From an uncultured Chloroflexia bacterium (GTDB lineage Bacteria > Chloroflexota > Limnocylindria > Limnocylindrales > CSP1-4), in contig CAWHDR010000001.1 of the NCBI GenBank assembly GCA_963828165.1, forward strand, positions 1,376,001 to 1,440,000: a stretch of DNA of 64,000 bases. The letters run 5' to 3'. The notes under the pieces are model-generated. The model had not been told where the DNA came from, did no database searches, and saw nothing but the letters and a program-made list of their open reading frames with translations. Positions 2,181 to 36,402 of the stretch are shown one piece after another. The stretch's first letter is position 1. Each line of letters starts with the position of its first letter. A program made the translations under genes and the position numbers.

Positions 2181-3533
2181 TTAACTGACCTCTGCGAACC
2201 GCTCCCCCGCGTAGCTCACGAACCGCGTCTGGCGCTTCTTGAACCACAGCTGGATCTCGCCGGTGGGGCCGTTGCGGTGCTTGGCGAGCTTGAGATTGAT
2301 GACCTCGCCGTCGGTCTCCTGGTCCTCGGGGCCGCTGCGTTCCTTGTCGCGCCACAGGAACATCACGAGATCGGCGTCCTGCTCGATGGCGCCCGACTCG
2401 CGCAGGTCCGACAGCCGCGGTTCCTTGGACTCGCGCATCTCGGGCTGCCGGGACAGCTGTGACAGGGCGATGACCGGCACGCTCAGCTCGCGCGCAAGCG
2501 CCTTGAGCCCGCGCGAGATCTCCGACACCTCCTGGACCCGGTTGGCGTCGCGGTTCGTCGTGGTCGCCTGCATCAGCTGCAGGTAGTCCACGATGATCAG
2601 GTCCAGGCCCGACTCCGCCTGGAGCCGGCGCGATTTGGTCCGCAGCTCCATGGCCGAGATGTTGGGCGAGTCGTCGATGTACATCGGCGCTTCCGACAAC
2701 GAGTTCATCGCCGGTGCGATGCGCGCGAAGTCGAGCTCCTCCAGGAACCCCGAGCGGAGCCGCTGTGAGTCGATGTTGGCGACGCTCGACAGCATCCGGA
2801 GCACCAGTTGCTCCTTGCTCATCTCGAGGCTGAAGACGCCGACCGTCTTGCGCTCCTTGACCGCGGCATGCTCGGCGATGTTGAGCGCGAAGCTCGTCTT
2901 GCCGACCGACGGGCGGGCGGCGAGGACGATGAGGTCGCTCGGCTGGAGGCCGGTCGTCAGCGCATCGAGATCGGCGAAGCCCGTTCGGACGCCGGAGATC
3001 TCGCCGCGGTGCGCGTGCAGGTAGTCGAGCCGGTCGTAGGCGTCGTGCAGCAACGACTTGAGTGGCGAGAACCCCGCGTCGACGCGTTTCTGGCTGACCG
3101 CGAAGAGCTCGGACTCGGCGCGGTCGATCGCCTCCTGGATCTCGGCCGGGTCCTCGTACCCGATGCCGGCGATCCGGCCCGCGGCCCCGATGAGATTGCG
3201 CAGGACCGCCTTGCGCTCGACGATCCGCGCGTACTGGGCCGCGTGGACCGCGGTCGGGGTCTCGTTGCTGAGACTGGAGAGGTAGGCCCGCCCGCCGACC
3301 GCCTCGAGCTCCTCGCGCCGCTCGAGCGACTCCGCGACGGTGACGATGTCGATGGGCTCGCGGCGTTCGAACAGGTCGATGATCGCGGCGTAGATGCGGG
3401 CGTTGGCCTGGCGATAGAAGTCCTCCGGCCGCAGGAACTCGGCGACCTCGACCACGGCATCGCGGTCGATGAGGATCGCGCCGAGCACGGATTGCTCGGC
3501 TTCGAGACTTTGCGGCGGCAGGCGATCGATCAC
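2181..3533 (-). CDS. dnaB: Replicative DNA helicase DnaB
   Basis: N-term PPQSLEAEQSVLG, Walker A AARPSVGKT, IVDYLQL, LSDLRESGAIEQDAD, KHRNGPTG; no intein. Confidence 0.98.
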   Translation of the reverse strand: MIDRLPPQSLEAEQSVLGAILIDRDAVVEVAEFLRPEDFYRQANARIYAAIIDLFERREPIDIVTVAESLERREELEAVGGRAYLSSLSNETPTAVHAAQYARIVERKAVLRNLIGAAGRIAGIGYEDPAEIQEAIDRAESELFAVSQKRVDAGFSPLKSLLHDAYDRLDYLHAHRGEISGVRTGFADLDALTTGLQPSDLIVLAARPSVGKTSFALNIAEHAAVKERKTVGVFSLEMSKEQLVLRMLSSVANIDSQRLRSGFLEELDFARIAPAMNSLSEAPMYIDDSPNISAMELRTKSRRLQAESGLDLIIVDYLQLMQATTTNRDANRVQEVSEISRGLKALARELSVPVIALSQLSRQPEMRESKEPRLSDLRESGAIEQDADLVMFLWRDKERSGPEDQETDGEVINLKLAKHRNGPTGEIQLWFKKRQTRFVSYAGERFAEVS

Positions 3534-3927: not shown

Positions 3928-4578
3928 TCAGTCGAGCTTGCGGATGACGCCGATCAGTTTCCCCTGAATGCGGACGTCGTCATAGAACTGCGGGGGATAG
4001 GCCTGGTTAGCTGGCTGGAGACGGATCTTGTCCTTCTCCTTGAAGAAGCGCTTGAGGGTGACCGCGTTCTCCTCCACCTGGGCGACCACGATGTCGCCGT
4101 TGCGGGCGGTGGACTGCGGGCGGATGAGGACGAAGTCGCCGTCCGTGATGTGCGCCTCGATCATCGAGTCGCCGCGGACGCGCAGCACGTAGGCGTCGCC
4201 GCTGGGGGCGAGCATGTCCGGGACCGACATGGACTCCGAGGCGTCCTGATAGGCCTCGATCGGACCGCCGGCAGCGATCTCACCGATGATCGGGACGATG
4301 AACGAGTCCGGCGTGGTGGCCTGCGGCACGAGTTCGCTGGACAGACCCAGCCGGATCGCCGCCGTGGGCGTCAGGCGGATGGCCCGGCTTTGCGCGGCGC
4401 CGCGCTCCAGGTAGCCGTCGCGTTCCAGGATCTGCAGGTGGTGGTGGACCGCGGACGTGGAGGCGAGTCCGACGGCTTGGGCGATCTCTCGCACGGACGG
4501 CGGGTAGCCGCGGGCGCGCAGGGTCGCGGCGATGAAATCGAGGATCCTGACCTTGCGCTCGGCGTCGTGCTTCGTCAC
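3928..4578 (-). CDS. lexA: SOS repressor LexA
   Basis: GYPPSVREI winged HTH, Ala-Gly cleavage site IAAG, GDSM serine, TLKRF lysine; GTG start 4578 with AAGGAGG RBS at 4584-4590. Confidence 0.97.
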   Translation of the reverse strand: MTKHDAERKVRILDFIAATLRARGYPPSVREIAQAVGLASTSAVHHHLQILERDGYLERGAAQSRAIRLTPTAAIRLGLSSELVPQATTPDSFIVPIIGEIAAGGPIEAYQDASESMSVPDMLAPSGDAYVLRVRGDSMIEAHITDGDFVLIRPQSTARNGDIVVAQVEENAVTLKRFFKEKDKIRLQPANQAYPPQFYDDVRIQGKLIGVIRKLD

Positions 4579-4597
4579 TCGCGCCTCCTTGCCCTGC

Positions 4598-4625
4598 ATG
4601 ATACCGAACGGACGTTCGATGTCAA
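4598..4625 (-). promoter_or_regulatory. lexA promoter with SOS box between -35 and -10
   Basis: Minus strand TTGACA (4625-4620), 16 bp, TATCAT (4603-4598); CGAAC-GTCC-GTTCG at 4605-4618. Confidence 0.9.
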
Positions 4626-4725: not shown

Positions 4726-5223
4726 ATGGCCAAGGGAAAGAGTCCCGGATGGGTCGGCTTCAGCCGGATGGTGTCGCTGCTGGCGTTCCTGCCGGTCGCT
4801 ACCCGCATCCCGGACTATGCCCGGCTGATCACGGCCCTCGTGTTCGATGAGCGGATGCCGAAGGACCGCAAGGTCCTGCTCGGTGCCGCTGCCGGCTACA
4901 TGGTCCTCGGGCGCGACATCGTGCCCGACAGCCTGCCCATCCTCGGTGGCCTCGACGACGTCGTCGTCGTCGTCCTGGCGGTCGACCTCTTCCTCGACGG
5001 CGTTCCGCCGGAGCTCCTCCACGAGAAGCTCGACGACCTCGGTATCGACCGCGTGGCCTTCGACCGCGACATCGCGCAGATCCGGCGCTTGACGCCAGGC
5101 CCCGTCCGTCGGACCATCCGGCGGGTCCCCGCCCTCATGGCCGGCGCGGGGCGTGCCATCGAACGATCCGGACTCGTGCCGCGCGTGCGGGCCTGGGTCA
5201 CCAAGGAGGGTCCCAGCACTTGA
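4726..5223 (+). CDS. YkvA/DUF1232 family protein
   Basis: DIVPDSLPILGGLDD motif; ATG at 4726 within the longer ORF 3688-5223. Confidence 0.8.
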   Translation: MAKGKSPGWVGFSRMVSLLAFLPVATRIPDYARLITALVFDERMPKDRKVLLGAAAGYMVLGRDIVPDSLPILGGLDDVVVVVLAVDLFLDGVPPELLHEKLDDLGIDRVAFDRDIAQIRRLTPGPVRRTIRRVPALMAGAGRAIERSGLVPRVRAWVTKEGPST

Positions 5224-5666
5224 AGGTCATCCTGACCAGCGACGTAGACAAGCTCGGCAAGAGCGGCGAGATGAAGCAGGTCTCGGACGGCTACGCGACC
5301 AACTTCCTGATCCCGCAAGGGGTCGCCGTGCCCGCCGCCGGGGGGGCTTACCGCGCGTGGCAGCACGACATCGCCAACCGCGAGGACAAGCGGAAGAAGG
5401 AACGCGAGGAAGCCGAGATCGCCGCGACCCGCATCGCCAGCACGACCCTGACGATGGGCGTGAAGGTCGGCGAGGGCGGCAAGCTCTACGGCTCGATCAC
5501 GTCGAAGGACATCGCCGACGCGCTCGCGCGGCGCGGCATCGAGGTCGACCGCCACAAGATCGACCTGGAGGAGCCCCTGAAGTCGCTCGGCACGTACAAG
5601 GTCGCGATCAAGGTGTTCACGGGGATGACCCCCGAGGTCACGATCGTGGTGGAGCCCAAGGGCTGA
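5220..5666 (+). CDS. rplI: 50S ribosomal protein L9
   Basis: MKVILTSDVDKLGKSGE, GYATNFLIP, GKLYGSIT; TTG start with AAGGAGG RBS. Confidence 0.97.
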   Translation: MKVILTSDVDKLGKSGEMKQVSDGYATNFLIPQGVAVPAAGGAYRAWQHDIANREDKRKKEREEAEIAATRIASTTLTMGVKVGEGGKLYGSITSKDIADALARRGIEVDRHKIDLEEPLKSLGTYKVAIKVFTGMTPEVTIVVEPKG

Positions 5667-5699
5667 CCGAACGGTCCCAGCCGTTGCGCTTCGGGCGGC

Positions 5700-7730
5700 C
5701 TACCGCAGGCGCCAGACGCTGACCCCCTCGGCGTCGTAGACGGTCTCGAACAACGGGCTCGCCGCGAAGTCGGTCGGCTCGCCGTCGACGCACTCGAGCA
5801 CGCCGCCCGACGAGAGCACGTACGTCGCGCCGTACTTCGCCATCCGCTCGACGGCCACCTCCGGGCCATCGCAGTAGGCGGCATGCACGTCCACCTCGCG
5901 CGGCGCCGGGTCGTAGCCCAGGTTCGACACGTACGGCCCGAACGTCGTGATCCGTAGCCGCCCGGCGAGGTCCACGGGCGAGTTGATGAAGGCGTCGGTC
6001 ACGAAGACGGCGTCGTCCGGTGTGGACGTCTCGATCCAGCGGCCCGCCGCGGCCTGGGCGAGGCTCATGACAACCGCCGGATGCAAAGCATGGTGGAGCG
6101 CGATGAGCGCCGGCGAGATCGCACAGACGACAAGGGCCGCCGCGATCGCCGGGCGCGGCCAGCGGGCCACGAGCCAGGCGGCCAGGATCGCCGCCGAGAT
6201 CCACATCATCTGGAAGTACTTGTTCATGTCGAAGTCGACGTCGCTCACGCGCACGACATTGGGGACGAGGAAGAGGGCCACGAGCCAGGCGGCCAGGAAC
6301 CCACGATGGGGCACCCGATCTGTACCGCGCGGAAGCAGCAACGCGGCGATCGCGAGCAGCACCGGGAGGCCAAGGTTGGTCGCATAGAAGAAGAGGACGG
6401 CCGCGGGCCCGTCGGCAAGGCGCGCCTCGCTCCAGCCGCCGACGAACCGGAATGCGCCCTCGGCCTGCTGGCGCGAGGCGGCGGGCAACACGAACGGCAA
6501 CGCCATCACGACCGGAGCCAGGAACAGCACGGCATCGCGGAGGACCGTCCGGGCACGCCACGCACCCGACGTGAGCACGAAGAGCCCGACGATCAGGTAG
6601 ACGGCCGGGAACGCATGGAAATGGAATGGCGCGAGCAGGGCCGCCAGGAGGCCCGCCAGCAGCACGCCCGCGGGCCGGCGGCCGAGGCACGCGACGACGA
6701 GCAGGACGACCGCGACGAGGCCCGGGAGGCCGAACGTCGTCGCACGGTGCGGGAGGAAGCCGGTCCCGAGGACCGATGCGATGCGGAAGAACGGCCAGCC
6801 TTCCGACCAGGAGTTGTCGTAGGGGTTCTGGGTGATCAGACCCAGGACGTCCGTGTTGCCGGCAAGCAGGTCCGCCCCGAGGCGCAGCCAGCCCATCCCG
6901 CCACCGAAGCACACGAGGATCGCCGCGATCGTCGCGACCAGCCGGCGCCCCGTGAGCACGAGGGCGAGGGACCAGGCGACGAGGGCGAGCGCCGCCGCCA
7001 TCAGCGCGCTCGAGAGGAAGAAGACCGGGATGATCGGCACGTTCGCGGCGCTCGCCGCGATCGCGCCGTGGAAGTCGGCGAACCAGTGATACGTCAAAGG
7101 CTCGCCCGCGAAGTACGGCACCTCGGGTGGGAAGTTGCCGTGGACAATGCTGTTGCCGATCGCGACGTGGACCAAGAGGTCGCTCCAGTTCCAGCCGCCC
7201 GACACCATCCCGTCGGGGGTCTCGCGCCAGCCGTTCGAGGCCAGGATCGCCAGGACGACGAGGCCGACCACGCCCGCGACGATCCAGGCCGGGGCGTCCT
7301 CGCGCAGCCCGCGCCGCACTTCGGACGGGACGTCGGCGACCGCCGGGAACGACCACGGGGCGAGCCACGGGTGGCGGATCCGGGTCAACACCGCAGTCGC
7401 GAGCACGAGTACGAGGATCGCGACGAGGACCGCGATCCGCCCGAACCCATCGAGCCGGCTGACGAGCTCGACGAGGTGGGCCGACAGGTAGGTGCTCGCG
7501 ACGATGCCGACGCCGACGACGCCCGGTCGTGGCAGGTCCGGCGCGACCCGGCGCACGAGGACCCAGCCCGGAACGGCGAACAGCCACGGCCAGACGAGGA
7601 CGACCGCGAGGATCGGGACCGACCAGGCCAGGACGAGTCCGGCCGTCAGGCCCAGGATCAGCGCCAGGGCCGGCGTCGACCGGATCGGATCGAGGCCGAT
7701 GCGATCGTCGTCAGGCGTGGCGACGCTCAC
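5700..7730 (-). CDS. Multi-TM membrane protein, putative GT-C glycosyltransferase (arabinofuranosyltransferase/DUF2298-like)
   Basis: More than 10 TM segments; WSDLLVH...FPPEVPYFAGEPLTYHWF extracytoplasmic loop; soluble C-terminal domain; GTG start overlaps upstream stop (GTGA). Confidence 0.7.
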   Translation of the reverse strand: MSVATPDDDRIGLDPIRSTPALALILGLTAGLVLAWSVPILAVVLVWPWLFAVPGWVLVRRVAPDLPRPGVVGVGIVASTYLSAHLVELVSRLDGFGRIAVLVAILVLVLATAVLTRIRHPWLAPWSFPAVADVPSEVRRGLREDAPAWIVAGVVGLVVLAILASNGWRETPDGMVSGGWNWSDLLVHVAIGNSIVHGNFPPEVPYFAGEPLTYHWFADFHGAIAASAANVPIIPVFFLSSALMAAALALVAWSLALVLTGRRLVATIAAILVCFGGGMGWLRLGADLLAGNTDVLGLITQNPYDNSWSEGWPFFRIASVLGTGFLPHRATTFGLPGLVAVVLLVVACLGRRPAGVLLAGLLAALLAPFHFHAFPAVYLIVGLFVLTSGAWRARTVLRDAVLFLAPVVMALPFVLPAASRQQAEGAFRFVGGWSEARLADGPAAVLFFYATNLGLPVLLAIAALLLPRGTDRVPHRGFLAAWLVALFLVPNVVRVSDVDFDMNKYFQMMWISAAILAAWLVARWPRPAIAAALVVCAISPALIALHHALHPAVVMSLAQAAAGRWIETSTPDDAVFVTDAFINSPVDLAGRLRITTFGPYVSNLGYDPAPREVDVHAAYCDGPEVAVERMAKYGATYVLSSGGVLECVDGEPTDFAASPLFETVYDAEGVSVWRLR

Positions 7731-10700
7731 CCGGATGAGCCCCGAAACCGTCCTGGTCGGCGGGCCCGCGGGCCGAACGCCCAGGCCAGCGACACGATGG
7801 CCGCGACCACCCCGAATGCCAGGCCGACCAATGCGTCCCACGGGATGAAGGTCTGGTGCACGACGCTCGCGCCGGCGGGCACCGGCACGAGCTGGCCCGC
7901 CATGGCCCGGGCCGCGTCGACCGGCGTTCCGTCGACCGTCGTCCGCCACGCCGGCCACCACGCCCGATCGATCCACAGCCACCCTGCCGCCGGGGCATCG
8001 ACCTCGACCTGGAGCGTGCTCGGATCGCGGGCCGACGGCGGCTGCTCGATGGCGGTGGCGATCGTCCGCTCGGCATCCATCTCAGCATCATGCGGGCGGA
8101 TCAACGAGGCGTCCGCCGCCGGCTCGAGCCGAACCGCATCCTCGGGGACCCAGTACGGCGGCCGGAGCGCGGCGTCGTCCCGGCAGATCGTCGCCTCCTC
8201 GGCTGCCACGATCGCCAACGGGCGACCGGGGCAGGGACGATCGAAGGTGACCACCACGTCAACACCGATCGCCCGCCGGAGGGAACCACCCGGGTCGTCG
8301 TCGGTGAGGCGATCGATGAGCCGGTCGCTTGCAAGCAGATCGAGCGAGCTGAACATCCGCAGGTCGGGGAGGCGCGCTGCCGCGAGCTGGTCGGGGGACC
8401 CTGCATAGAACCCCTGGGGATCCACCGCGAAGAGGCGGCGGGGCTCGGTCGCGGCGACGGCTCGGATGTAGTCGCCTTCGGCATACGAGAAGTCACTGAG
8501 CGGGCGCGCCGGGTTGGGCTGCGGCCCCAGGAGGATCAAGGGGATGGCCGCGACGCCGACGGCCAGCGGTCCGAGCGCGAGCCGAGTCGCCGGCCAGCGG
8601 GCGGTGCGCGCGACCAGGTACACCGCGGTCAGGCCGGCGACGACCTCGAGGAGGAGCGGCCAGGGCACGGTCAGCGCCGCCACGGCCAGCTCGCGCTGGG
8701 CCGCGACCCCCGCCTCCCCGAGGAACGACGAAGCTGCCAGGAGGAGGCGGTCGAAGACGGCCGGGATGGAGAGGGCAAGCGCGGTCGTCAGCGCGTACGC
8801 CGCGATGGGGATCGCGACCGCGGTGGTGGCTCGACGGACGGCGTCGCGCGACCGCCCGAGGCGACCCACGCCGATCCCGGCCAGCACCGCCAGGGCGAGC
8901 GCCACCACGAGGTAGGAGCGAGTCGGCGAGCGTAGGCCATTCAGGATCGGGATCTGGGTCCAGATCTCCGGACGGAACGCCGCGATGATCGGAATCGCCA
9001 GGCAGATGATGGCCAGCACGACGAACGGCCGGGCCCGGCGGGTTCGGATCGCGACCGCGGCCAGCGCCAGCACCGCCAGCCCCACGTATGCCGACGCTTC
9101 GAACAGCGCAAACGGCCCATCGGGATACCAGGTCGTCGACGTTCGCCAGGAACCCTCGATGGATCGGACGAACGCGTTCTGGAACCCGAACGAGAGGATG
9201 TCGAACGGGGTCGACGCGCTCGCGAACAGGTCCGTCGCGGACAGCGCCTCGCTCCGCACCGAGAGCGTTGTCAGGATCGCGGTCGGCAGGAGCTGGACGG
9301 CCCCGACCGCCCCGGCCAGGACGCCGAGCCCCGCGATGCGCCCGACTGTGGCCACCCGCGGGGCGGTCGCCAGCATCACGACGCCCGCGGCAAGGGTGGT
9401 CAGGAGCCACGTGTTCGGGTGCCCCGTCCACGCCTGGACGCCCAGGAGCAGGCCCGCTGCCACGAGCCCCCAGCGCGTCGGGTACGGGCGTCGCACGAGC
9501 GGCACAAGGACCCACGGCAAGTAGGCGTAGGCCGCCACGAGGTTGTGCCACTCGAGCTTGGCCGCGATGGCACCGCCGAACACCGCGACGAGCGCCGCGA
9601 GGACCGCTCCTGACCGCGAGCCGGCAAGCACCAGGACCAGCGTTCCGGCCCCCGTCCCCGCGATGGTCAGGTGGAGCACCCGCGAGAGGTCGAGCGCGAC
9701 GAGCGGTGGGAACTGGAAGAGCAGCCAGTTGGGCGGGTAGAACGCGCCGATCTGGCCCTCGGCATACAGCGGATACCCAAGGCCAAGGTCATCGTTCCAG
9801 AGCGGCAGCCGTCCCTCGCGGAGCGCGTCGTGGAAGAAGCTGGCGAGGGGGAAATCGATCTTGGGGAGGTCCAGGTTCCACAGCCATGGACCCGCCGGAC
9901 CGTGGATCCGGGCGACCAGGATCGCCGCCACGAAGGACACTAGCGCCAGGGCCGCGATCGTTCCGCGTGCCGCTGGCGGCCGCCACCCGCGGATAGCGAC
10001 GGCCAGGCGTTCCGTGCCCTCGGCGAGCGGCCGGAACGGCCGTGGCGACAAGGGGCTGTGGGTCGCCGCCTCTTCGAACGACGACGGCCCACCGGGGCGC
10101 GTGGCTCCGCCGGCCGCCACGGTCGCCCTTGGCAGGCTGCCGGGCCGCAACGCTCGGAACGCCAGCACCGCCATCACCGCGACCGTCACCGCCGCTAGCA
10201 CGTAGATTCCGGCAGGGCTGTAGACCGTCGCACCGAGGATCCCCCGCCCCGGCCCCTCATTGGCGCCCGGCAGCGAGTACACCCAGTAGACGTCGAAGAA
10301 CACGATCGCGGACAGGGCGACATACAGGCGACGCCACTCCGGACCGGCGGCGAGGAGCGGGAGTCCGAGGGCGAGCGCCGGGTAGAGGTAGCGCTCGTGG
10401 ACGCGGGTCGGAAGCGCGAAGAACGCGACGGCGATGACGAGCGCCACGAACACGATCGCTGCCCCATCCGAACGTCGGATCAGCACCGACAGAGCGACCA
10501 GCACCGCCGCGATGAACAGCAGATTCCCGATCCACTGCCAGGTGAGTGCCAACCCGCCGATCGCGAGCGCCACGGTGGTGTCGTCGACGACGTGGCCTTC
10601 GGTCGCCCCGCTCGCGCCGACGATCACGACGTCGAACAACGGGTTCATCCACAGGTTGAAGGCATTCTGGGTCACCCCGGGAAACGCCTTCGACGCGGCG

Positions 10701-11495
10701 ATGAAGCGGTCCACGAGGCTATGCGCCGGGTCGTTGGGGTCGAACAGCCGCAGGCCAAATGGCAAGCAGACGAGGATCAGCGTCGTCGCGCCGGCGAGGA
10801 TCGCCAGTCCCGATCCGGCGCGGGTCGCGCGGCCAGGTCGCGCCGTCTCCATCGGGCAAGCCCAGCAGATGACGCCGCAGGGCCACGATGGCGATGATCG
10901 GGATCACGAAGCCGTACTGGAACTTGATGAGCATCGCGATGACGCCGACCGCCGCTGCAGCCTCGGTTCGGCCGGTGACCAGCAGGTAGATGGCGCCCAC
11001 GACGGCGAGAGTCGCGATCGAGTCGTTCTGGCCCCACACCGACGACACGAGGATGACCGCGGGGTTGAACAGGAAGACCGCCGCGGCGACCAGGCCGGCC
11101 CGCGGACCGAACAGCCGGCGCGCCAGGAGGAACAGGACGGCCGCGAGGACAAGGTCCGCCACGATGAACGGCAGCTTGATCATGAGCGGCGTGACGTCCG
11201 CGCCGCCGAATGTCGCGCTCCACGCCCGACCGGCGACGCCGGTCAGCCACAGGACGTACAGGTAGACCGGCGGGTAGTCGGCGAAGTAGCCGGAATCGGG
11301 CCGATAGAAGGCGCCCGGCCCGTTCGCCGCCAATTCGCGCGCCCACTGGACCAGGAGGGCGAGGTCGGACTGGTGCCCACCGTCCGGCAGGATGACGACG
11401 GCGACGAGCAACCGGATCAGGAGACCGCCAGTGAGGAGGAACACCAGCGGCCGGAACTGCGGCCACCGCTCGTCCGAGCGTCCGGGAGCGATCAC
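7727..11495 (-). CDS. Fused GT-C mannosyltransferase-like + YfhO-like membrane protein (~1255 aa), split by +1 frameshift at 10809-10811
   Basis: N-part DYPPVYLY, KLPFIVADL, FLFNPAV, WGQND, HERYLYP; C-part LPLWNDDLGLGYPLYAEGQIGAFYPPNWL and WWPAWRTTVDG typical of YfhO; removing one G joins ORFs 10719-13004 and 7727-10852. Confidence 0.75.
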
Positions 11496-12778
11496 ACCCA
11501 CCAGTCGAAGTAGGTCGAGCCCATCCCCCACACGTTGATGAGGACACCGATCGCGATCGCGATGCAGGCCTCGAACGAGATGCGACCCCTGAGGCCCCGA
11601 GCGGTCAGCAGGAACAGGAACGGGTACAGGTCCTGGGCGTATCGGAATCCGAACTGTTCGCCACCGGCGTCGGCGTGCAGCAGGATCGGGATGAGGATGA
11701 GCGCGACGGACACCCACGCGCCGAGGTTGAACCAGTCGGGTCGTCGGGCCCGGATCGACCACAGGAACAGCGGGGTCGTCAGCACGATCGACAGCCCGCC
11801 CAGGTGGCGCGACTGGATCCACGGGAAACCGTTGACCTGGGCGGGAGCGCTCAGGAACAGGGCGTACAGCTTGCGTGGGATGTTGACGATGCTGAAGAAG
11901 CCATCGCGGTACTGCGTTTCCTGGAGGAGACCCGGGATGAGCGCGTATCCGGTCTGAAGCGGCGATCCGAACCGCATGTAGTTGTAGATGAGGTAGCCAA
12001 CGACCGGAAGCGCCGCCCCGGCCGCGAGTGGCGTTCCGAGGTCGATGAACCGGCGCAGGCTCGGGCGGGCTTCGCGCGCTGGCGGGCGGGCCACGAGCAG
12101 CGAACCGAACACCGTCCGATCGTTCGTCGCCTCCCGGTGCGCGGCATCCGCGATGTAGGCCATGAAGAACGGTGCGGCCAGCATCAGTGGCAGCCGCGAG
12201 ATCACGGCCGCGCCGAACAGCAGCCCGATGAGACCCGCGCGGGCATCCAGCTGGCAGGCCCGGATCGCGAGCAGCATGAAGAAGGTGGCGACCACGTGCG
12301 CGAAGTGCCACGAGGACCCAGCCTGGGCCGAGTACCAGACGATCGTCCCGAACGCGAACACCAGCGCGAGCACGAGGGCCGGGCGCCGCGCCGCGCCCAT
12401 CCCACGCAGCACGGCGTGCATGACGACGACGTTCGCGGCGCCGAGCAAGATCGACGCCCACGCCTGGTCGAAGCCAGGTCCGAACAGCAGCACGGCCGGC
12501 AGCAGGACGATCGCGGGCATCGGCGGGTAGACGACGAACGCCAGGCCGTTGAACGGGACCAACTCGTTCAGATTCCCCGGCATCTCCGTCAGGCCGAGCC
12601 GACCGTGCAGGAACGCATCGGCCAGGGGCACGAAGTAGTCGAGCTGCGCCTCGCGGCCGTTGTTCAGCCAGGCGTACACCGCTACGGCCAGGACGAACAG
12701 GCCCGCCGGGATGAAGACACCGTCGACCAGCTCGGCCCGGTCGGCGGGTTCGGATCGGCGGTCTGCGTCGAGCGTCAT
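11492..12778 (-). CDS. Multi-TM membrane protein, putative GT-C glycosyltransferase
   Basis: LADAFLHGRL, VYPPMPA, YNYMRFGSP, GGEQFGFRY motifs; RBS GGAGG. Confidence 0.7.
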   Translation of the reverse strand: MTLDADRRSEPADRAELVDGVFIPAGLFVLAVAVYAWLNNGREAQLDYFVPLADAFLHGRLGLTEMPGNLNELVPFNGLAFVVYPPMPAIVLLPAVLLFGPGFDQAWASILLGAANVVVMHAVLRGMGAARRPALVLALVFAFGTIVWYSAQAGSSWHFAHVVATFFMLLAIRACQLDARAGLIGLLFGAAVISRLPLMLAAPFFMAYIADAAHREATNDRTVFGSLLVARPPAREARPSLRRFIDLGTPLAAGAALPVVGYLIYNYMRFGSPLQTGYALIPGLLQETQYRDGFFSIVNIPRKLYALFLSAPAQVNGFPWIQSRHLGGLSIVLTTPLFLWSIRARRPDWFNLGAWVSVALILIPILLHADAGGEQFGFRYAQDLYPFLFLLTARGLRGRISFEACIAIAIGVLINVWGMGSTYFDWWV

Positions 12779-12836
12779 CGCCTCCTGCCCTGGTCACGCC
12801 GACATCGGTGGTGGCCGGCGCGATGATACCCGGGCC

Positions 12837-14147
12837 ATGACGGAGCGAACGATCCTCCACGTCGACCTGGACGCGTTCTTCGCGGCCGTGGAGCAACGCG
12901 ATCGCCCGGAATTGCGCGGCTTGCCCGTCATCGTCGGTGGGGATCCACGCGGCCGCGGGGTCGTGTCGGCGGCGAGCTACGAGGCTCGCCGCTTCGGGGT
13001 GCACTCGGCGATGTCGCTCCGCGAGGCCGTCCGGCGCTGTCCGGATGGCGTGTTCCTGCCGGTCGACGGCCGGCGTTACCAGCAGGCTTCGCGTGATGTG
13101 ATGGCGGTCCTGCGTCGGTTCACGCCGCAGGTCGAGCCGATCTCGATCGACGAGGCGTTCCTGGACGTCACCGGGTCACGCCAGCTCTTCGGCGACGGCG
13201 CGACCATCGCCCGGCTCATCAAGGCCGGCGTCCGCGAGGAGGTCGGGCTGACCGTGTCGGTCGGGGTCGCGCGGACCAAGCTCGTGGCCAAGATCGCGTC
13301 GGACCTGCGCAAGCCGGATGGGCTGGTCGTCGTGGCGAGCGGGGAGGAGGCCGCGTTCCTCGCGCCGCTCCCGATCTCGCGGCTGTGGGGCGTAGGCGAG
13401 AAGACGGCCGTGGTCCTGGCCGAGTACGGGGTTCGCACGATCGGTGACCTCGCGGCGCTCGCGCCGGACGTCGTGGTCCGGCGGTTCGGCAAGCACGGCG
13501 GCTCGCTCGTGGAGCGCGCGCGTGGCATCGATGCCGACCCGGTCCACGCAGGCGACCCGGCGAAGTCCGTCGGACACGAGCACACCTTCGATGTGGATAC
13601 CAGCGACCCGGAGATCATCGAGCGCACGATCCTTGGCATGGCCGACGGGGTCGCCGGGCGGTTGCGCTCGGCCGGTGTGCGCGCATCGACCATCGCCGTG
13701 AAGATCCGCGACTCGTCCTTCCGCACGATCACGCGGCAGCGAACCCTGCCGGAGCCGACGGACATGACCGAGCCGATCTTCCACACCGCGCTCGAGCTCG
13801 CCCGGCCGGAGGTCCGCGGCATCCGCGTGCGCCTGCTGGGCGTCACCGCGTCCAACCTGGGCGAGCGCGAGCAGCTGGGGCTGTTCCCCAGCGACGATCC
13901 CCGCCACCGGGCCGCCATCGAAGCTGCGGACGAGCTTCGACGACGGTATGGCGAGGGCGCCGTCACCCGCGGTCGGCTGGTCGGTGCGCGGTTGCCAGCG
14001 CCGTTCGAACGCGATCCACGGAACCCGCTCGACCTGCGTGCGCGGGGCGTGCCCATCGAAGGCCCGGAGCCCGATCCCGATGCCGCGATCGATCGTGACA
14101 GCCTAGGTGACACGGACCTCGACGACAGTCCATCCGACGACGCTTGA
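12837..14147 (+). CDS. dinB: Y-family DNA polymerase IV
   Basis: LHVDLDAFFAAVE, SYEARRFGV, SIDEAF, KPDG; beta-clamp motif QLGLF; RecA-NT-like tail. Confidence 0.95.
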   Translation: MTERTILHVDLDAFFAAVEQRDRPELRGLPVIVGGDPRGRGVVSAASYEARRFGVHSAMSLREAVRRCPDGVFLPVDGRRYQQASRDVMAVLRRFTPQVEPISIDEAFLDVTGSRQLFGDGATIARLIKAGVREEVGLTVSVGVARTKLVAKIASDLRKPDGLVVVASGEEAAFLAPLPISRLWGVGEKTAVVLAEYGVRTIGDLAALAPDVVVRRFGKHGGSLVERARGIDADPVHAGDPAKSVGHEHTFDVDTSDPEIIERTILGMADGVAGRLRSAGVRASTIAVKIRDSSFRTITRQRTLPEPTDMTEPIFHTALELARPEVRGIRVRLLGVTASNLGEREQLGLFPSDDPRHRAAIEAADELRRRYGEGAVTRGRLVGARLPAPFERDPRNPLDLRARGVPIEGPEPDPDAAIDRDSLGDTDLDDSPSDDA

Positions 14148-14196
14148 CATCGAACACTTGTTCGGTCTAGTGTCGAAGTCATCGAACAGATGTTCT
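14144..14196 (+). promoter_or_regulatory. SOS-regulated promoter with two LexA boxes
   Basis: TTGACA 14144-14149 overlaps the dinB stop; CGAACACTTGTTCG 14151-14164; CGAACAGATGTTCT 14183-14196. Confidence 0.88.
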
Positions 14197-14260
14197 GTCG
14201 GCCGAGTGCCCCGGGCGACGAGATCCATATCGTCTTTGCCCCCGGAAAGGAACGAATGAC

Positions 14261-14533
14261 ATGGCATTCATCCGTGTCGCGCCGGTCCAGGTCCACGTTC
14301 GGACGGACTGGTTCAGCGGTCGCCCGCGTGAGGTCACCTGGGGCGACGAGCGTCTACCGATCACGCACCTGTCTGCCCTCCGCGAAGAAGCGGCCGCCTA
14401 TCCCGTGATCACCGGCCCGCGCACCCTGTTCGAGGTGGAGACCCCCAAGGCGCGCCTGTCGCTGACCTACCAGCATCGATCGCGCCGCTGGACGGTCACT
14501 GCCGTTGACAGGGAGCGTCGCGCAGCCGCCTAG
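14261..14533 (+). CDS. Small SOS-boxed protein, ImuB-C/DUF6504-like
   Basis: RBS AAGGA; pattern PVQV...GRPREVTWG...FEVET...L.Y...RW resembles ImuB C-terminal/DUF6504 domains (by eye). Confidence 0.7.
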   Translation: MAFIRVAPVQVHVRTDWFSGRPREVTWGDERLPITHLSALREEAAAYPVITGPRTLFEVETPKARLSLTYQHRSRRWTVTAVDRERRAAA

Positions 14534-14548
14534 CCCTTCATGTCGTAG

Positions 14549-14581
14549 CGGGGCGGGTGCGCCGGTACCGCGCCCGCCCCG
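14549..14581 (+). terminator. GC-rich hairpin, putative terminator
   Basis: CGGGGCGGGTGCG...CGCGCCCGCCCCG inverted repeat after the stop; no U tract. Confidence 0.5.
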
Positions 14582-14643
14582 ACGCGACGTATCGCGGCGC
14601 GCGGGGCCGTTCGGTGCGTCGCGTGTCCACCTACAATCGGTGC

Positions 14644-15327
14644 GTGACTCCACCCACGGACGACTCCCATCGCTTCGGCGACATGACCCTCAGCGACTTC
14701 GTCGTTCGCCTCGGTTCATCGGATCCGGTGCCTGGAGGTGGCAGCGCGTCGGCGGTTGCGGCCGCGCTCGGCGCGAGCCTCGTGCGGATGGTCGCGTCAC
14801 TGTCCATCGGGAGACCCAAGTTCGCGGAGCACGAGGATCTCCTCAGGTGGGCGTTCGAGCGGGGTGACGAGCTCGCGGGTCGGTTCCTGGCGATGGCGGA
14901 CGAGGACGCGGCCGCGTTCGCCGACTTCGCTGCGGCCCTGAAGCTGCCAAAGACGAGCGATGCCGAGGCAGAAACGCGACGCATCGCCCTACGATCCGCG
15001 GCCCGTCACGCTTCCGAGGTGCCGCTCGCCTGTGTCGAGGCGTGCCTGGAGCTTGCCGGCGTCGCCGAGGCCCTCGCCGGCCGGAGCAACCAGAACGCCT
15101 CCAGCGACCTTAACGTGGCTGCCCTGCTCGCCGAGGCCGCCGCCCGGGGAGCCGCCGCCAACGTGATGGTCAACCTCCCGTCCATCGCAGATTCGGAGGT
15201 CGAAGGCGAGATGACGGCCCGGGTGTCGGAGCTCCTTTCGGCCATCGAGGATCTCGCCACGCAGACGCGCGAGGTCGTCGGGAGCGGCGAACCCGGCGAA
15301 CCGCGGCCGGCCCCGGAGCGCGGCTGA
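14644..15327 (+). CDS. fchA: Formiminotetrahydrofolate cyclodeaminase/cyclohydrolase family
   Basis: PVPGGGSASA, DEDAAAF, VPL, NVMVNL motifs; leaderless GTG 6 nt after TACAAT. Confidence 0.88.
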   Translation: MTPPTDDSHRFGDMTLSDFVVRLGSSDPVPGGGSASAVAAALGASLVRMVASLSIGRPKFAEHEDLLRWAFERGDELAGRFLAMADEDAAAFADFAAALKLPKTSDAEAETRRIALRSAARHASEVPLACVEACLELAGVAEALAGRSNQNASSDLNVAALLAEAAARGAAANVMVNLPSIADSEVEGEMTARVSELLSAIEDLATQTREVVGSGEPGEPRPAPERG

Positions 15328-15329
15328 CC

Positions 15330-16223
15330 GTGTCGGACGGCCCGAGCGCACGTCGTCTCGAAGGGAAGCCGATCGCCGACGAGATCCGCGCAGCGGTCGC
15401 CGAAGACGTCGTCGCATTCACCCAGGAGCAGGGCCGACCGCCCGGCCTCGCCGTCGTCATCGTCGGGCGCGACGCGCCCTCCACGGTCTATCTCGAGCAG
15501 ATCATCCGCGGCTGCGCCAAGGTCGGGATCGACGCACGCTTCGTGGAGCTGGAAGGCGAAGCGACCGAAGTGTCCGTCGTCGACACGATCCGAGAGCTCA
15601 ACGCCGATCCCCGCGTCGACGGGGTCATCGTCCAGATGCCGCTACCGCCGACGATCCGCCTGCGCTCCGTCATCGACGCCATCGATCCGGACAAGGACAT
15701 CGACGGCATCCACCCGCTCAATGCGGGGCTGCTGCGTCTCGGGTACGACGGGTTCCTGCCGGCGACGGCCCACGCCTCGGTCGAGATCCTGCGACGCTCC
15801 GGCATCGAGATCGCGGGTCGCGATGCCGTGGTCATCGGTCGCTCGGCGGTCGTCGGCATGCCGGCGGCGTTCCTGCTCGTGAAGGAGGACGCCACGGTCA
15901 CGGTCTGCCACCGGCGGACGCGCGACCTTGCCGCGAGGACCCGGGAGGCCGACATCGTCATCGTGGCCGCGGGGCACCCAGGCCTCGTCACCGGTGAGAT
16001 GCTGAAGCCGCGTGCCGTCGTCGTCGATGTCGGCATCAATATCGTGGACGGGCGGATCGTCGGCGACGTAGAGTTCGAGTCCGCCGCGCGCGTCGCGAGT
16101 GCCATCACGCCGGTGCCCGGTGGCGTCGGCCCGTTGACCAACGCCCTGCTCCTGACCCATCTCATCCGCGCCGCCGAACGGCACGCGGGCGCGACCGAAC
16201 CGGCTCCGGCCGCCGGGCGCTGA
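15330..16223 (+). CDS. folD: Bifunctional methylene-THF dehydrogenase/cyclohydrolase
   Basis: VQMPLP, KDIDG, VIGRSAVVGMP, ITPVPGGVGPLT. Confidence 0.96.
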   Translation: MSDGPSARRLEGKPIADEIRAAVAEDVVAFTQEQGRPPGLAVVIVGRDAPSTVYLEQIIRGCAKVGIDARFVELEGEATEVSVVDTIRELNADPRVDGVIVQMPLPPTIRLRSVIDAIDPDKDIDGIHPLNAGLLRLGYDGFLPATAHASVEILRRSGIEIAGRDAVVIGRSAVVGMPAAFLLVKEDATVTVCHRRTRDLAARTREADIVIVAAGHPGLVTGEMLKPRAVVVDVGINIVDGRIVGDVEFESAARVASAITPVPGGVGPLTNALLLTHLIRAAERHAGATEPAPAAGR

Positions 16224-16247
16224 TCCCGCCCACGATCGAGGAGATCG

Positions 16248-17954
16248 ATGAGCTTCCCGTCCGACCTCGACATCGCGCGCTCCGTGACCCCGCGGCCGAT
16301 CGTGGACATCGCCGCCGAGCTGGGCATCCTGCCCGACGAGCTCGAGCTGTACGGACCGACCAAGGCCAAGGTGACGCTCGCTGCGATCACGCGCCTCGAA
16401 GCCGCGCGCCCGCGCGGGAAGTACGTCGTGGTCACGGCGATCACGCCGACGCCGCTCGGCGAGGGCAAGTCGACGACGACGGTGGGCCTTGCCCAGGGCC
16501 TCAACCAGATCGGCCACCGGGCGTCGGTCAATATCCGCCAGCCGTCGCTCGGGCCCGTGTTCGGGATCAAGGGCGGCGCGGCCGGCGGTGGCTACAGCCA
16601 GGTCATCCCGATGGAGGACTTCAACCTCCACCTGACCGGCGACGTCCACGCGATCGGCGCGGCCCACAATCTTGCCGGCGCATTCATCGACAACAGCCTC
16701 CACCACAAGAATCCGCTCGGCATCGACCCGCACGCGGTCCTCTGGCCGCGCGTGCTCGACATCAGCGATCGGGCGCTGCGCCACATCGTCCTTGGGCTCG
16801 GTGGACGCCAGGACGGTGTCCCGCGCGAGACCGAGTTCGTCATCACGGTCGCGTCCGAGGTGATGGCCGTCCTCGCGCTCGCGACCGACATCCACGACCT
16901 GCGGGCGCGGCTGGGACGGACGGTGCTGGCCACGCGCGTTGATGGCACGCCGGTGACCGCGGACGACCTCGGGGTCGCCGGCGCCATGACCGTCCTGCTC
17001 CGCGACGCGATCAAGCCGAACCTGCTCCAGACGCTCGAGGGTGGCCCAGCGTTCGTCCACGCCGGCCCGTTCGCGAACATCGCCCATGGCAACAACTCGA
17101 TCATCGCGGACCGGCTCGCCCTCGCCACGAACGACATCGTCTGCACGGAGGCGGGCTTCGGGGCCGACATGGGTGCCGAGAAGTTCTTCGACATCAAGTG
17201 CCGGGCGTCCGGGCTAGCCCCGGATGCGGCCGTGGTGGTCGCCACCGTCCGGGCACTCAAGATGCACGGCGGGGTCGGCCGCATCGTGGCCGGCAAGCCG
17301 CTCGACCCGGCCCTGCTCGAAGAGAACGTCGAAGCCGTTCGGACCGGGGCGTCGAACCTCGCGGCCCACATCGAGATCGTCCGCAAGTTCGGCATCCCCG
17401 CGGTCGTCGCCATCAATGCCTTCCCGACCGACACGCCCGCCGAGGTCGAAGCGATCCGCGAGGCGGCGCTGGCGGCCGGGGCGCGTGACGCCGTGCTCGC
17501 CACGCACTTCTCGGACGGTGGGAAGGGCGCAACCGCGTTGGCCGAGGCGGTCTGGGACGCCGCGGAGGATCCGTCGCGCTCGTTCCGGCTCCTCTATCCC
17601 GACGAGGCGCCGCTCGGCGAGAAGATCCACACGATCGCGACCCAGATCTACGGGGCGGACGGCATCGACCTGACGCCGGCTGCCCAGAAGTCGCTGAAGC
17701 TGTATGAGTCACTCGGCTTCGGGCACCTGCCGGTCTGCATGGCCAAGACCCAGTACTCGCTCAGCCACGACGCGAACCTCCTCGGCCGGCCGGCGGGCTT
17801 CACGGTGCCGATCCGCGAGATCCGCCTGTCCGCGGGGGCGGGCTTCATCACGCCGTTGTGCGGCGAGATGCGGACGATGCCGGGGCTCCCGTCCGTGCCG
17901 GGCGGTCGCAACATCGACATCGACGCGGATGGGAACGTCGTCGGGCTGTTCTGA
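16248..17954 (+). CDS. fhs: Formate--tetrahydrofolate ligase
   Basis: [57 protein letters not shown]. Confidence 0.98.
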
Positions 17955-36200: not shown

Positions 36201-36402
36201 GGTGCGTGGACGCACCGGTTTCCGGCCACGCTGGGCGGAGGCTGATAGTCCGGTTGGGTCCCGACCATCCGTCGGTACTAGACCGAGGGGTACCTGCCGT
36301 GCAACTATCGGTCCACGTCGTTCCGGTGAACGGACGTTCAGGAAAGCCACCGGAAGGCAGCACTCATTTCATCCGAGGCCATCGCGCCTCTGTTCGGGGA
36401 CC
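36201..36402 (+). promoter_or_regulatory. Conserved upstream module of surface protein 1
   Basis: GGTGCG-N4-CGCACC 36201; GGTACTAGAC 36274; TGC-AACTAT extended -10 at 36300-36308; GAGGC..GCCTC hairpin and GGGGACC before ATG; same layout upstream of 38265. Confidence 0.55.

Follow-up and report, generated by a model that had tools for sequence, protein, structure and literature searches.

A divergent stand-alone ImuB-C/DUF6504 protein encoded behind a double LexA-type operator next to dinB in an uncultured Limnocylindria bacterium

We analyzed a window of 64,000 nucleotides (nt; positions 1,376,001 to 1,440,000 of contig CAWHDR010000001.1, assembly GCA_963828165.1) from an uncultured soil Chloroflexota bacterium of the class Limnocylindria, whose metagenome-assembled genome measures 3.3 Mb with a G+C content of 69.5%. 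Coordinates without a prefix are those of the window. Two plus-strand genes are the subject of this analysis: dinB (12837-14147), which encodes a DNA polymerase IV (Pol IV) of 436 amino acids (aa), and behind it a gene for a 90-aa protein (14261-14533) that, judging from profile-profile comparison and a structure model, is a divergent stand-alone ImuB-C/DUF6504 paralog ending in -Ala-Ala. A preliminary description had interpreted the pair as a split mutasome, in which DNA damage induces the small subunit and so switches on or recruits an otherwise uninduced polymerase. The locus was compared with 80 related loci, with a class sample of 41 genomes, in which the window's own family is called f1, and with a phylum sample of 401 Chloroflexota genomes.

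DinB matched the Pfam families IMS (E-value 1.2e-51), IMS_C (3.4e-29) and IMS_HHH, and NCBIfam Pol IV models matched it near or above their cut-offs. The carboxylates D10, D12, D105 and E106 were invariant in an alignment of 33 orthologues, and an orthologue was present in all 41 genomes of the class sample. By its sequence dinB is thus an intact Pol IV gene with its catalytic residues in place, as the preliminary description had it. Motifs of the QLGLF type bind the beta clamp. In DinB this motif was identified from the sequence at residues 346-350 (13872-13886, plus strand), where Q346 and F350 are invariant and L347 nearly so among the 33 orthologues.

After the little-finger domain, the order of elements in DinB is QLGLF, HRAAIEAADELRRRYGEGAVTR (13905-13973, plus strand), LPAPFERDPRNPLD (13992-14033, plus strand) and a variable acidic end. 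The first of the two motifs past the clamp motif, which includes the stretch AADELRRRYGEGAVTRG (13920-13970, plus strand; residues 362-378), had been described as resembling the N-terminus of RecA (RecA-NT). Compared with the RecA N-termini of the class by hhalign, the tail aligned to the N-terminal helix and strand in the expected register, but the score was weak: P was 0.0047, and the lowest value from 40 column shuffles was 0.047. The tail alone matched no Pfam family at E-values up to 10, DUF4113 included. The RecA-NT likeness is plausible on this alignment and in line with the motifs treated in parts of PMC6511836. Clamp motif and RecA-NT-type motif were kept in all DinB tails of the class that we compared, and the sequence beyond them varied by family. 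LPAPFERDPRNPLD is specific to f1, where it reached ~90-99% identity over 64 close loci, matching the conservation of the catalytic core; the DinB tails of f2, f3 and f4 lack it.

The dinB stop codon TGA (14145-14147) lies within a TTGACA hexamer (14144-14149, plus strand) that would serve as a -35 element. LexA box 1 follows, with the 16-nt sequence TCGAACACTTGTTCGG at 14150-14165 and the core GAACACTTGTTC at 14152-14163, and then a -10-like hexamer, TAGTGT (14168-14173, plus strand), 4 nt past box 1 and 18 nt past the -35 hexamer. LexA box 2 has the 16-nt sequence TCGAACAGATGTTCTG at 14182-14197 and the core GAACAGATGTTC at 14184-14195. Box 1 therefore occupies the 18-nt spacer between the two hexamers, and box 2 lies 10 nt downstream of the -10 hexamer. 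Next comes a 65-nt leader with a predicted ribosome-binding site, GGAAAGGA (14244-14251, plus strand), 9 nt ahead of the ATG at 14261; AAAGGAG was kept in the leader alignment. The -35 and -10 hexamers were judged by eye; a consensus promoter scan of 12600-14800 gave no calls. The stop codon inside TTGACA, the two GAAC-N4-GTTC boxes and the 90-codon open reading frame (ORF) all stand where they had been reported. No conserved RNA structure was found in 27 copies of the leader (three predicted pairs, -0.52 kcal/mol). Directly after box 2, a patch of the form GTC-G..CGA-GTGCCCCGG.CGA (14198-14222) was conserved in the 27 aligned copies.

The pattern GAAC-N4-GTTC occurred four times in the window against 0.79 expected, a count reached in two of 100 shuffles, and of the two copies outside the promoter one lies directly upstream of lexA. 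A box at 36328 was considered as an operator and rejected; its matrix score is below 14 and it is probably a chance occurrence. The matrix, 20 nt long, was derived from six other sites of the same genome (upstream of lexA, imuA, dnaE2, a radical-SAM gene, a uvrA-like gene and an MrfA-like helicase gene), with both studied boxes left out. Across the 3.3-Mb genome it ranked box 2 sixth (score 25.2) and box 1 eighth (22.7). The layout was constant: in 81 of 81 loci, that is the window and the 80 related loci, two exact boxes lay 30-36 nt apart (mode 34) and TTGACA stood exactly 2 nt ahead of box 1, while a TAnnnT-type hexamer occupied the -10 place in most of the 81 copies. With a 160-nt limit, the box pair was counted in 75 of the 80 related loci. 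As sequence elements, the two boxes are LexA-type operators beyond what chance would give, and the small gene does sit behind a double SOS box.

The position of these operators, taken together with what is known of Gram-positive-type LexA regulons, suggests that the small gene is tightly repressed by LexA and expressed as a single-gene transcript only after DNA damage. Among sequencing runs, no RNA run with this stretch was listed; the 20 runs that contain part of it are DNA runs, each with at most 0.13 of its words. Behind its stop codon lies a perfect G+C-rich hairpin of 13 base pairs (14549-14581, plus strand; minimum free energy -41.2 kcal/mol, z -2.96), a possible terminator without a U tract. 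A terminator scan of 12600-14800 gave no calls. An uninterrupted stem of at least eight pairs followed the ORF in 73 of 79 related loci, compared with 149 of 240 random 90-mers from the same loci, a moderate enrichment. Upstream of dinB, the best LexA-box score in 260 nt was -7.2, so the earlier statement that dinB has no SOS box of its own holds in this genome. A near-box, GAAC-N4-GGTC (scores 14.4-20.4), did precede dinB in five of 74 related loci.

The 90-aa protein of the window gave no match in Pfam (E-value up to 1) or NCBIfam scans, and a six-frame search of the genome with the DUF6504 model PF20114 found nothing at E-values up to 10. It has many close relatives: 696 of 708 candidates from a word-indexed library matched it at an E-value of 0.01 or below (the 120 library matches listed were 78-100% identical, and the named ones were mostly labelled Limnocylindrales), and an exhaustive search of 1.84 billion representatives returned 137 matches, 78 of them at or below 1e-10. 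Alignment A1, which holds 34 full-length family members, has near-invariant positions at V13, P22, R41, E43, A46, G52, P53, R54 and W77. PF20114 matched four of these 34 members, with a best E-value of 1.7e-4. Because the window's own protein fails this model, it is a superfamily relative and not a member of the family as the Pfam model is drawn.

Profile-profile comparison connects the family to DUF6504. With hhalign, the 90-aa family matched DUF6504 proteins with a probability of 97.7 (P 2.5e-12), and stand-alone DUF6504 proteins from outside Limnocylindria alone with a probability of 97.5 over 83 columns (P 7.7e-12); the reversed alignment gave 0.7 and 30 column shuffles gave at most 3.6. 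In the other direction, a profile of DUF6504 proteins and of the 82-aa proteins introduced below (A2) matched the 90-aa genes of 10 genomes with E-values of 1.7e-9 to 4.3e-4. A1, run as a profile over the 401 Chloroflexota genomes, found only six weak matches outside the class (2e-4 to 6e-3). Scans of three of the six showed small ORFs with DUF6504 matches, which exceeded the cut-off in two cases; one of these three ORFs directly follows a Y-family polymerase gene. PF20114 itself was matched in 61 of the 401 genomes (including G344, which is flagged unpublished) versus none of 45 Limnocylindria. DUF6504 also matched the C-terminus of fused ImuB proteins of 546 and 556 residues, behind a RecA-NT-like motif, which identifies DUF6504 with the ImuB-C domain.

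The conserved residues fit this assignment in part. The ImuB-C signature given in PMC3765255, a conserved C-terminal Trp with at least two basic residues, is present in the 90-aa family. The C-terminal Trp and the Trp of R-W-x-G are kept, W77 aligning with A2 column W75. R14, R23, R73 and R76 were invariant in the close set, and W77, R41 and R54 nearly invariant in the 34 sequences. The central tryptophans W39 and W46 of A2 ('W...WW') are lost and replaced by V-R-x-E-x-A-A-Y-P...G-P-R-T.

An AF2 model of the 90-aa protein (pLDDT 78.9) is all-beta with seven strands; in the model of the 82-aa ImuB-C protein (pLDDT 90.8) the strands again number seven, with matching order and nearly matching positions. 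Of 50 listed structural neighbours from 48,161 chains, 26 were common to both models, mostly over the same chain ranges, which indirectly supports a common fold for the modelled proteins. Foldseek found no match in the PDB at an E-value of 0.001 or below, a sequence search of solved structures with both family profiles found nothing below 0.2, and the best VIA-align hits of the two models (Z 5.3 and 6.0) were generic beta arrangements. This agrees with PMC12926913, in which ImuB-C is modelled as a domain without close structural relative and is not SH3-like. Full-length profile matches with clean controls, reciprocal HMM matches and the common seven-strand model together establish, at the level of sequence and model comparison, that the 90-aa protein is a highly divergent free-standing member of the ImuB-C/DUF6504 superfamily. 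The checks that the preliminary description had proposed for this point, profile comparison and modelling against ImuB-C and DUF6504, thus came out in its favour.

Conserved arginines in a small protein with its own promoter could also point to a free-standing, damage-induced DNA or lesion binder that acts alone or recruits several repair factors, with no dedicated polymerase. DNA or lesion binding was proposed for ImuB-C by Aravind and co-authors (PMC3765255), the family conserves R14, R23, R41, R54, R73 and R76, and the gene appears to be transcribed alone, with its own operator pair ahead and a hairpin behind. However, the structure searches revealed no DNA-binding fold, their top neighbours (Z 5.3-6.0) being generic beta arrangements, and the later modelling in PMC12926913 gives ImuB-C a protein-binding role. 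We consider a pure DNA binder quite unlikely.

In the phylum sample the A1 profile matched every genome of three class families (23 of 23, 4 of 4 and 16 of 16) and neither of two genomes of a fourth. In the class sample the family was present in all 12 f1 genomes besides the window's own, in the one f2 genome and in all 13 f3 genomes. In f4 it was absent from 13 genomes except for one weak match of the 82-aa type, and the single f83 genome had none. A dinB match lay upstream on the same strand in 78 of the 80 related loci, and the other two have less than 300 nt of upstream sequence; at L087 the match was weak and partial. In f3, where identity of the small protein is only 36-44%, dinB, the two boxes, the small gene and the FTCD_C gene follow one another as in the window. 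The small gene is thus linked to dinB elsewhere too, being adjacent to it in f1, in f3 and, with dinB inverted, in f2. At L046, one of three loci where dinB lies ~2 kb away, genes that by eye resemble a sigma factor and an NHL protein lie between dinB and the small gene, and the boxes stay with the small gene. On its other side the small gene is adjoined by an FTCD_C gene in 75 of the 80 loci. In the window this is the first gene of a one-carbon metabolism row (14635-17954): a scan identified it as FTCD_C cyclodeaminase, and the next two genes resemble folD and formate-tetrahydrofolate ligase from their sequence.

A dinB with the same clamp and RecA-NT-type motifs, and without the small gene, was found in 12 of 13 f4 genomes and in the f83 genome. 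We asked whether dinB gains a LexA box of its own where the small gene is missing. It does not: in 14 of 14 f4 and f83 loci there was no box scoring at least 13 within 600 nt upstream of dinB, and three of these loci have one 0.7-1 kb upstream. A different arrangement occurs in f3. At L100, L101 and L102, lexA with its box stands co-directionally ahead of dinB, either directly or with a gene for an AlkZ-like crosslink glycosylase between them. The f3 dinB probably shares the damage-inducible promoter of lexA, as this gene order suggests.

The window's genome (G000) carries a further ImuB-C gene in a cassette at 1.85 Mb of contig 1 (L010, G000:C1:1848500-1858500; the following positions are within L010). 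An imuA-like gene (~1103-2254), encoding a partial RecA domain (E-value 2.9e-21), lies behind the box TAGAACAAGTGTTCTA. The imuB gene, which extends to 3265, stops directly behind the codons for QLPLF and a RecA-NT-like motif and encodes no C-domain. Its stop codon is overlapped by ATGA with an 82-codon ORF (3262-3507) whose product matched DUF6504 profiles with an hhalign probability of 98.7; direct Pfam and NCBIfam scans of this 82-aa protein gave no match. A further 1.7 kb beyond, behind the box TAGAACGTTTGTTCTA, follows dnaE2 (~4955-9273), with PHP, pol III alpha, finger, HhH and OB domains. Throughout the class, imuB and the adjacent 82-aa gene were found in 40 and 39 of the 41 genomes, adjacent wherever both were listed. 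The 90-aa gene is accordingly a second ImuB-C paralog beside a class-wide set of imuA, split imuB, 82-aa ImuB-C and dnaE2. No combination of ImuA with a split ImuB was found in the published accounts as far as these were accessible; there the DnaE2X type is described with RecA and not with ImuA.

In this assembly imuB and dnaE2 each show one reading-frame change (at ~2250-2330 and ~7100-7210 of L010), and the change in dnaE2 splits the pol III alpha domain (model position 192/193). The shifts may be genuine, or they may reflect indels of the assembly close to runs of G. A genome of the same genus, G124, has an open imuB frame of 573 codons.

The presence of this cassette raises an alternative for the 90-aa protein: that it works with ImuA, ImuB and DnaE2 and not with DinB, serving as a substitute or rival ImuB-C subunit that contacts DnaE2 and/or ImuA and either activates or inhibits, the adjacency to dinB being inherited synteny. 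The ImuB-C of fused ImuB proteins is the proposed DnaE2- and ImuA-binding module (PMC6511836, PMC12926913), the ImuB here lacks a C-domain while imuB and its neighbour of 82 codons are class-wide (the 40 and 39 genomes above), and strong LexA boxes precede imuA, dnaE2 and the small gene alike. Yet the cassette has its own, far more canonical ImuB-C, translationally coupled to imuB by the ATGA overlap. Family f4 keeps the cassette (11 of 13 and 12 of 13 genomes) without the 90-aa gene, so the cassette does not need it, and the 90-aa family no longer has the central WW of ImuB-C. We regard this alternative as unlikely, and the two ImuB-C paralogs probably serve different polymerases.

Stand-alone ImuB-C proteins beside Y-family polymerases (PolY) have been described before. 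Aravind et al. (2013, PMC3765255) defined ImuB-C, noted that its stand-alone copies are most often found with DinB and often with LexA, and proposed that it recruits translesion polymerases. Timinskas and Venclovas (2019, PMC6511836) described putative PolY-RecA-[ImuB-C] complexes in genomes in which imuA was not found, among them a lexA-imuB-C-polY operon from Geobacter sulfurreducens. More recently, PolYs associated with ImuB-C appear among 11 module types in PMC12926913 (NAR 2026), where ImuB-C is modelled as a beta-barrel of new fold that binds DnaE2's PHP domain as well as ImuA. A module of PolY with RecA-NT motif, stand-alone ImuB-C and lexA is therefore already in print in these three papers. 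It follows that the split mutasome of the preliminary description is a known concept, of which the present locus would be a very divergent variant. The main text of PMC12926913 does not contain the string 'Chloroflex'. Our literature search found no paper naming DUF6504 and none joining Limnocylindria with LexA, and for GSU0041/42/43 only PMC3765255.

The locus resembles these systems in having a small all-beta ImuB-C-type protein beside an active PolY with a clamp motif and a putative RecA-NT-like motif, in its predicted LexA control and, in the sister family f3, in the presence of lexA in the cluster; the co-directional lexA-(alkZ)-dinB-small gene cluster of f3 recalls the Geobacter operon. 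It differs from them in that PF20114 misses the protein, the central tryptophans are lost and a C-terminal Ala-Ala is conserved, and in that the small gene has its own double-operator promoter downstream of dinB in place of a shared lexA operon. Unlike the genomes described in PMC6511836, in which imuA was not found, this one also has imuA, imuB and dnaE2. What is particular here is the second ImuB-C paralog, with its WW motif lost, its conserved -Ala-Ala end and its own double operator. With the ImuA(')-ImuB-DnaE2 mutasome of Mycobacterium tuberculosis, Caulobacter and Pseudomonas it has in common the ImuB-C superfamily, a RecA-NT-type motif in the Y-family partner (putative here) and SOS control (here predicted). 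In the accounts of that mutasome, however, ImuB-C forms part of a Y-family protein that is catalytically dead, whereas here it is free and beside an active DinB, and the genome's own cassette has a further separate ImuB-C of 82 aa. The logic is also that of UmuD' (Pol V) and YqjX/YolD (YqjW), small beta-rich, damage-induced subunits described for Y-family polymerases that also contact RecA, although the fold family is unrelated and the 90-aa protein has neither an autocleavage domain nor an N-terminal arm.

From these comparisons we propose a mechanism. By its sequence, the 90-aa gene has its own promoter, with one LexA-type operator between the -35 and -10 hexamers and a second just past the -10. 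LexA would keep the gene off, and DNA damage would switch on its single-gene transcript. The product would then join the adjacent DinB as a small accessory subunit without catalysis of its own; this DinB would contribute its clamp motif and RecA-NT-like motif and has no LexA box in this genome. Together they would form a complex like the published PolY-RecA-[ImuB-C] ones, and damage would gate the accessory subunit, not the polymerase. Clearance by a ClpXP-type protease, signalled by the Ala-Ala end, would limit its action to the SOS window. Taken as a whole, we consider this mechanism about evenly poised between right and wrong, and its core, the role of the 90-aa protein as accessory subunit of DinB in such a complex, close to or somewhat under even.

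A predicted complex of DinB with the 90-aa protein (33-row alignments for each, no controls folded) scored 0.07 and 0.26, under the mark of 0.32, which counts neither for nor against binding. Several observations weigh against this mechanism. Since the central tryptophans are lost, the binding partner may differ from that of ImuB-C. LPAPFERDPRNPLD is not a general docking site, because it is missing from the f3 DinB although f3 has the small gene. Adjacency within one class may be inherited synteny, and the FTCD_C neighbour is kept at least as faithfully as dinB. In three of the 78 loci dinB lies ~2 kb away from the small gene, and in f2, where dinB is inverted, the two genes are adjacent but divergent. 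The presence of dinB without the small gene in f4 and f83 shows that DinB does not need it. Nor is the genome, by its gene content, a system with a single split mutasome, since imuA, a split imuB with a separate ImuB-C gene of 82 codons, and dnaE2 are present besides. The f2 copies of the protein, finally, end in -HA.

These points divide the preliminary interpretation. The ImuB-C-like protein, the LexA-type double operator and the linkage to dinB stand, and PolY with RecA-NT motif plus a stand-alone ImuB-C matches a known type of split mutasome, though one that here coexists with the separate imuA, imuB, 82-aa and dnaE2 cassette. The uninduced-polymerase switch does not stand in general. In f3, lexA with its box adjoins dinB, which is probably under the lexA promoter, so an uninduced polymerase is not a general feature of these loci. 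An induced subunit that turns on an uninduced polymerase would apply at most to the window's own family f1.

The C-terminus of the 90-aa protein adds a possible layer of control. The protein closes with -AA at 77 of the 80 close loci, in 27 of the 34 representatives and in four of four f3 copies, and the linker ahead of this end is variable both in sequence and in length. Other DUF6504 proteins, the 82-aa paralog among them, have C-termini of the type ...LYD. The tmRNA tag frame of this genome, judged by eye, ends in ...STLALAA, and ClpX is present (zinc finger, E-value 3e-20). The tmRNA gene itself lies at G000:C1:1250558-1250933 (minus strand) and was found as a match to Rfam RF00023 (119.6 bits), although ARAGORN called no tmRNA in the genome or in three loci. 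The -AA end, the tag frame ending in ...ALAA and the presence of ClpX lead us to suggest, tentatively, an ssrA-like degron: the conserved Ala-Ala resembles the end of the genome's own ssrA tag and might mark the protein for ClpXP-type clearance, confining its action to the SOS window, a possibility that we rate as doubtful. UmuD is degraded by Lon and ClpXP. Proteolysis has been discussed as a timer of SOS factors in PMC3765255.

Tight double-operator control and a degron-like C-terminus would suit a transient regulator of the opposite sign, an SOS-induced brake. Such a small inhibitor would sequester DinB, RecA or a part of the replisome until it is degraded, by analogy with other small LexA-controlled checkpoint proteins, and DinB does function in f4 genomes without the small protein. 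The sign of the effect, however, is not visible in the sequence. Typical SOS division inhibitors have a membrane segment, and the 90-aa sequence has no hydrophobic one. In the published superfamily context, moreover, ImuB-C is a constitutive part of active mutasomes. We consider a brake very unlikely.

The two ImuB-C paralogs could also be two free-standing adaptors, the 82-aa protein completing the split ImuB for DnaE2 and the 90-aa protein, made only during the SOS response and cleared via its Ala-Ala end, linking a constitutive, clamp- and RecA-binding DinB with either a C-family polymerase or the RecA filament. This extension is speculative and rather improbable. If true, ImuB-C would act generally as an exchangeable link that joins Y-family with C-family polymerases, and the choice of polymerase after damage would be set by induction and destruction of the adaptor and not by the polymerase.

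ImuB-C is the least understood module of bacterial mutasomes, and in the literature accessible to us we found no published function test of a stand-alone copy. The genome analyzed here offers a natural comparison between a canonical and a strongly rewired ImuB-C, whose genes neighbour different polymerase genes and are both predicted to be controlled by LexA boxes, and the sister family lacking the rewired copy adds a natural case of loss. The partner of ImuB-C, whether subunit or polymerase carries the damage signal, and proteolytic timing become testable questions in this setting. Divergent members in uncultured phyla are missed both by the Pfam model and by the published census of complete genomes, as far as its account goes.

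The window also contains lexA itself (3928-4599, minus strand), 8.2 kb upstream of dinB, with Pfam matches to LexA_DNA_bind and Peptidase_S24 and a box at 4606-4617 that scores 22.3. Between lexA and dinB lie two minus-strand genes, for proteins of 1041 aa (7727-10852) and 428 aa (11492-12778), neither of which matched Pfam. Both proteins are apparently membrane-spanning, and the gene for the second is transcribed divergently from dinB. This is the arrangement of the window's family. In the 600 nt ahead of recA (G000:C5:29301-29900) there is no LexA-type box, the best score being 3.9, so recA may be induced via a longer operon or not through LexA; the nearest good site (score 19.2) is at C5:32073, ~2.6 kb further upstream. 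A GAAC-N4-GTTC sequence at C1:1250942 (score 17.2) adjoins the tmRNA gene and precedes a gene for an MFS transporter; it is unlikely to be an operator. Further high-scoring boxes of the genome are located at G000:C1:2081376, C1:2701709, C5:203127, C1:2679608, C1:2547610, C1:2693094 and C1:2144320, and the genes downstream of such boxes include a radical-SAM gene, a uvrA-like gene, an MrfA-like DEAD/MZB helicase gene and a 150-aa ORF without a Pfam match.

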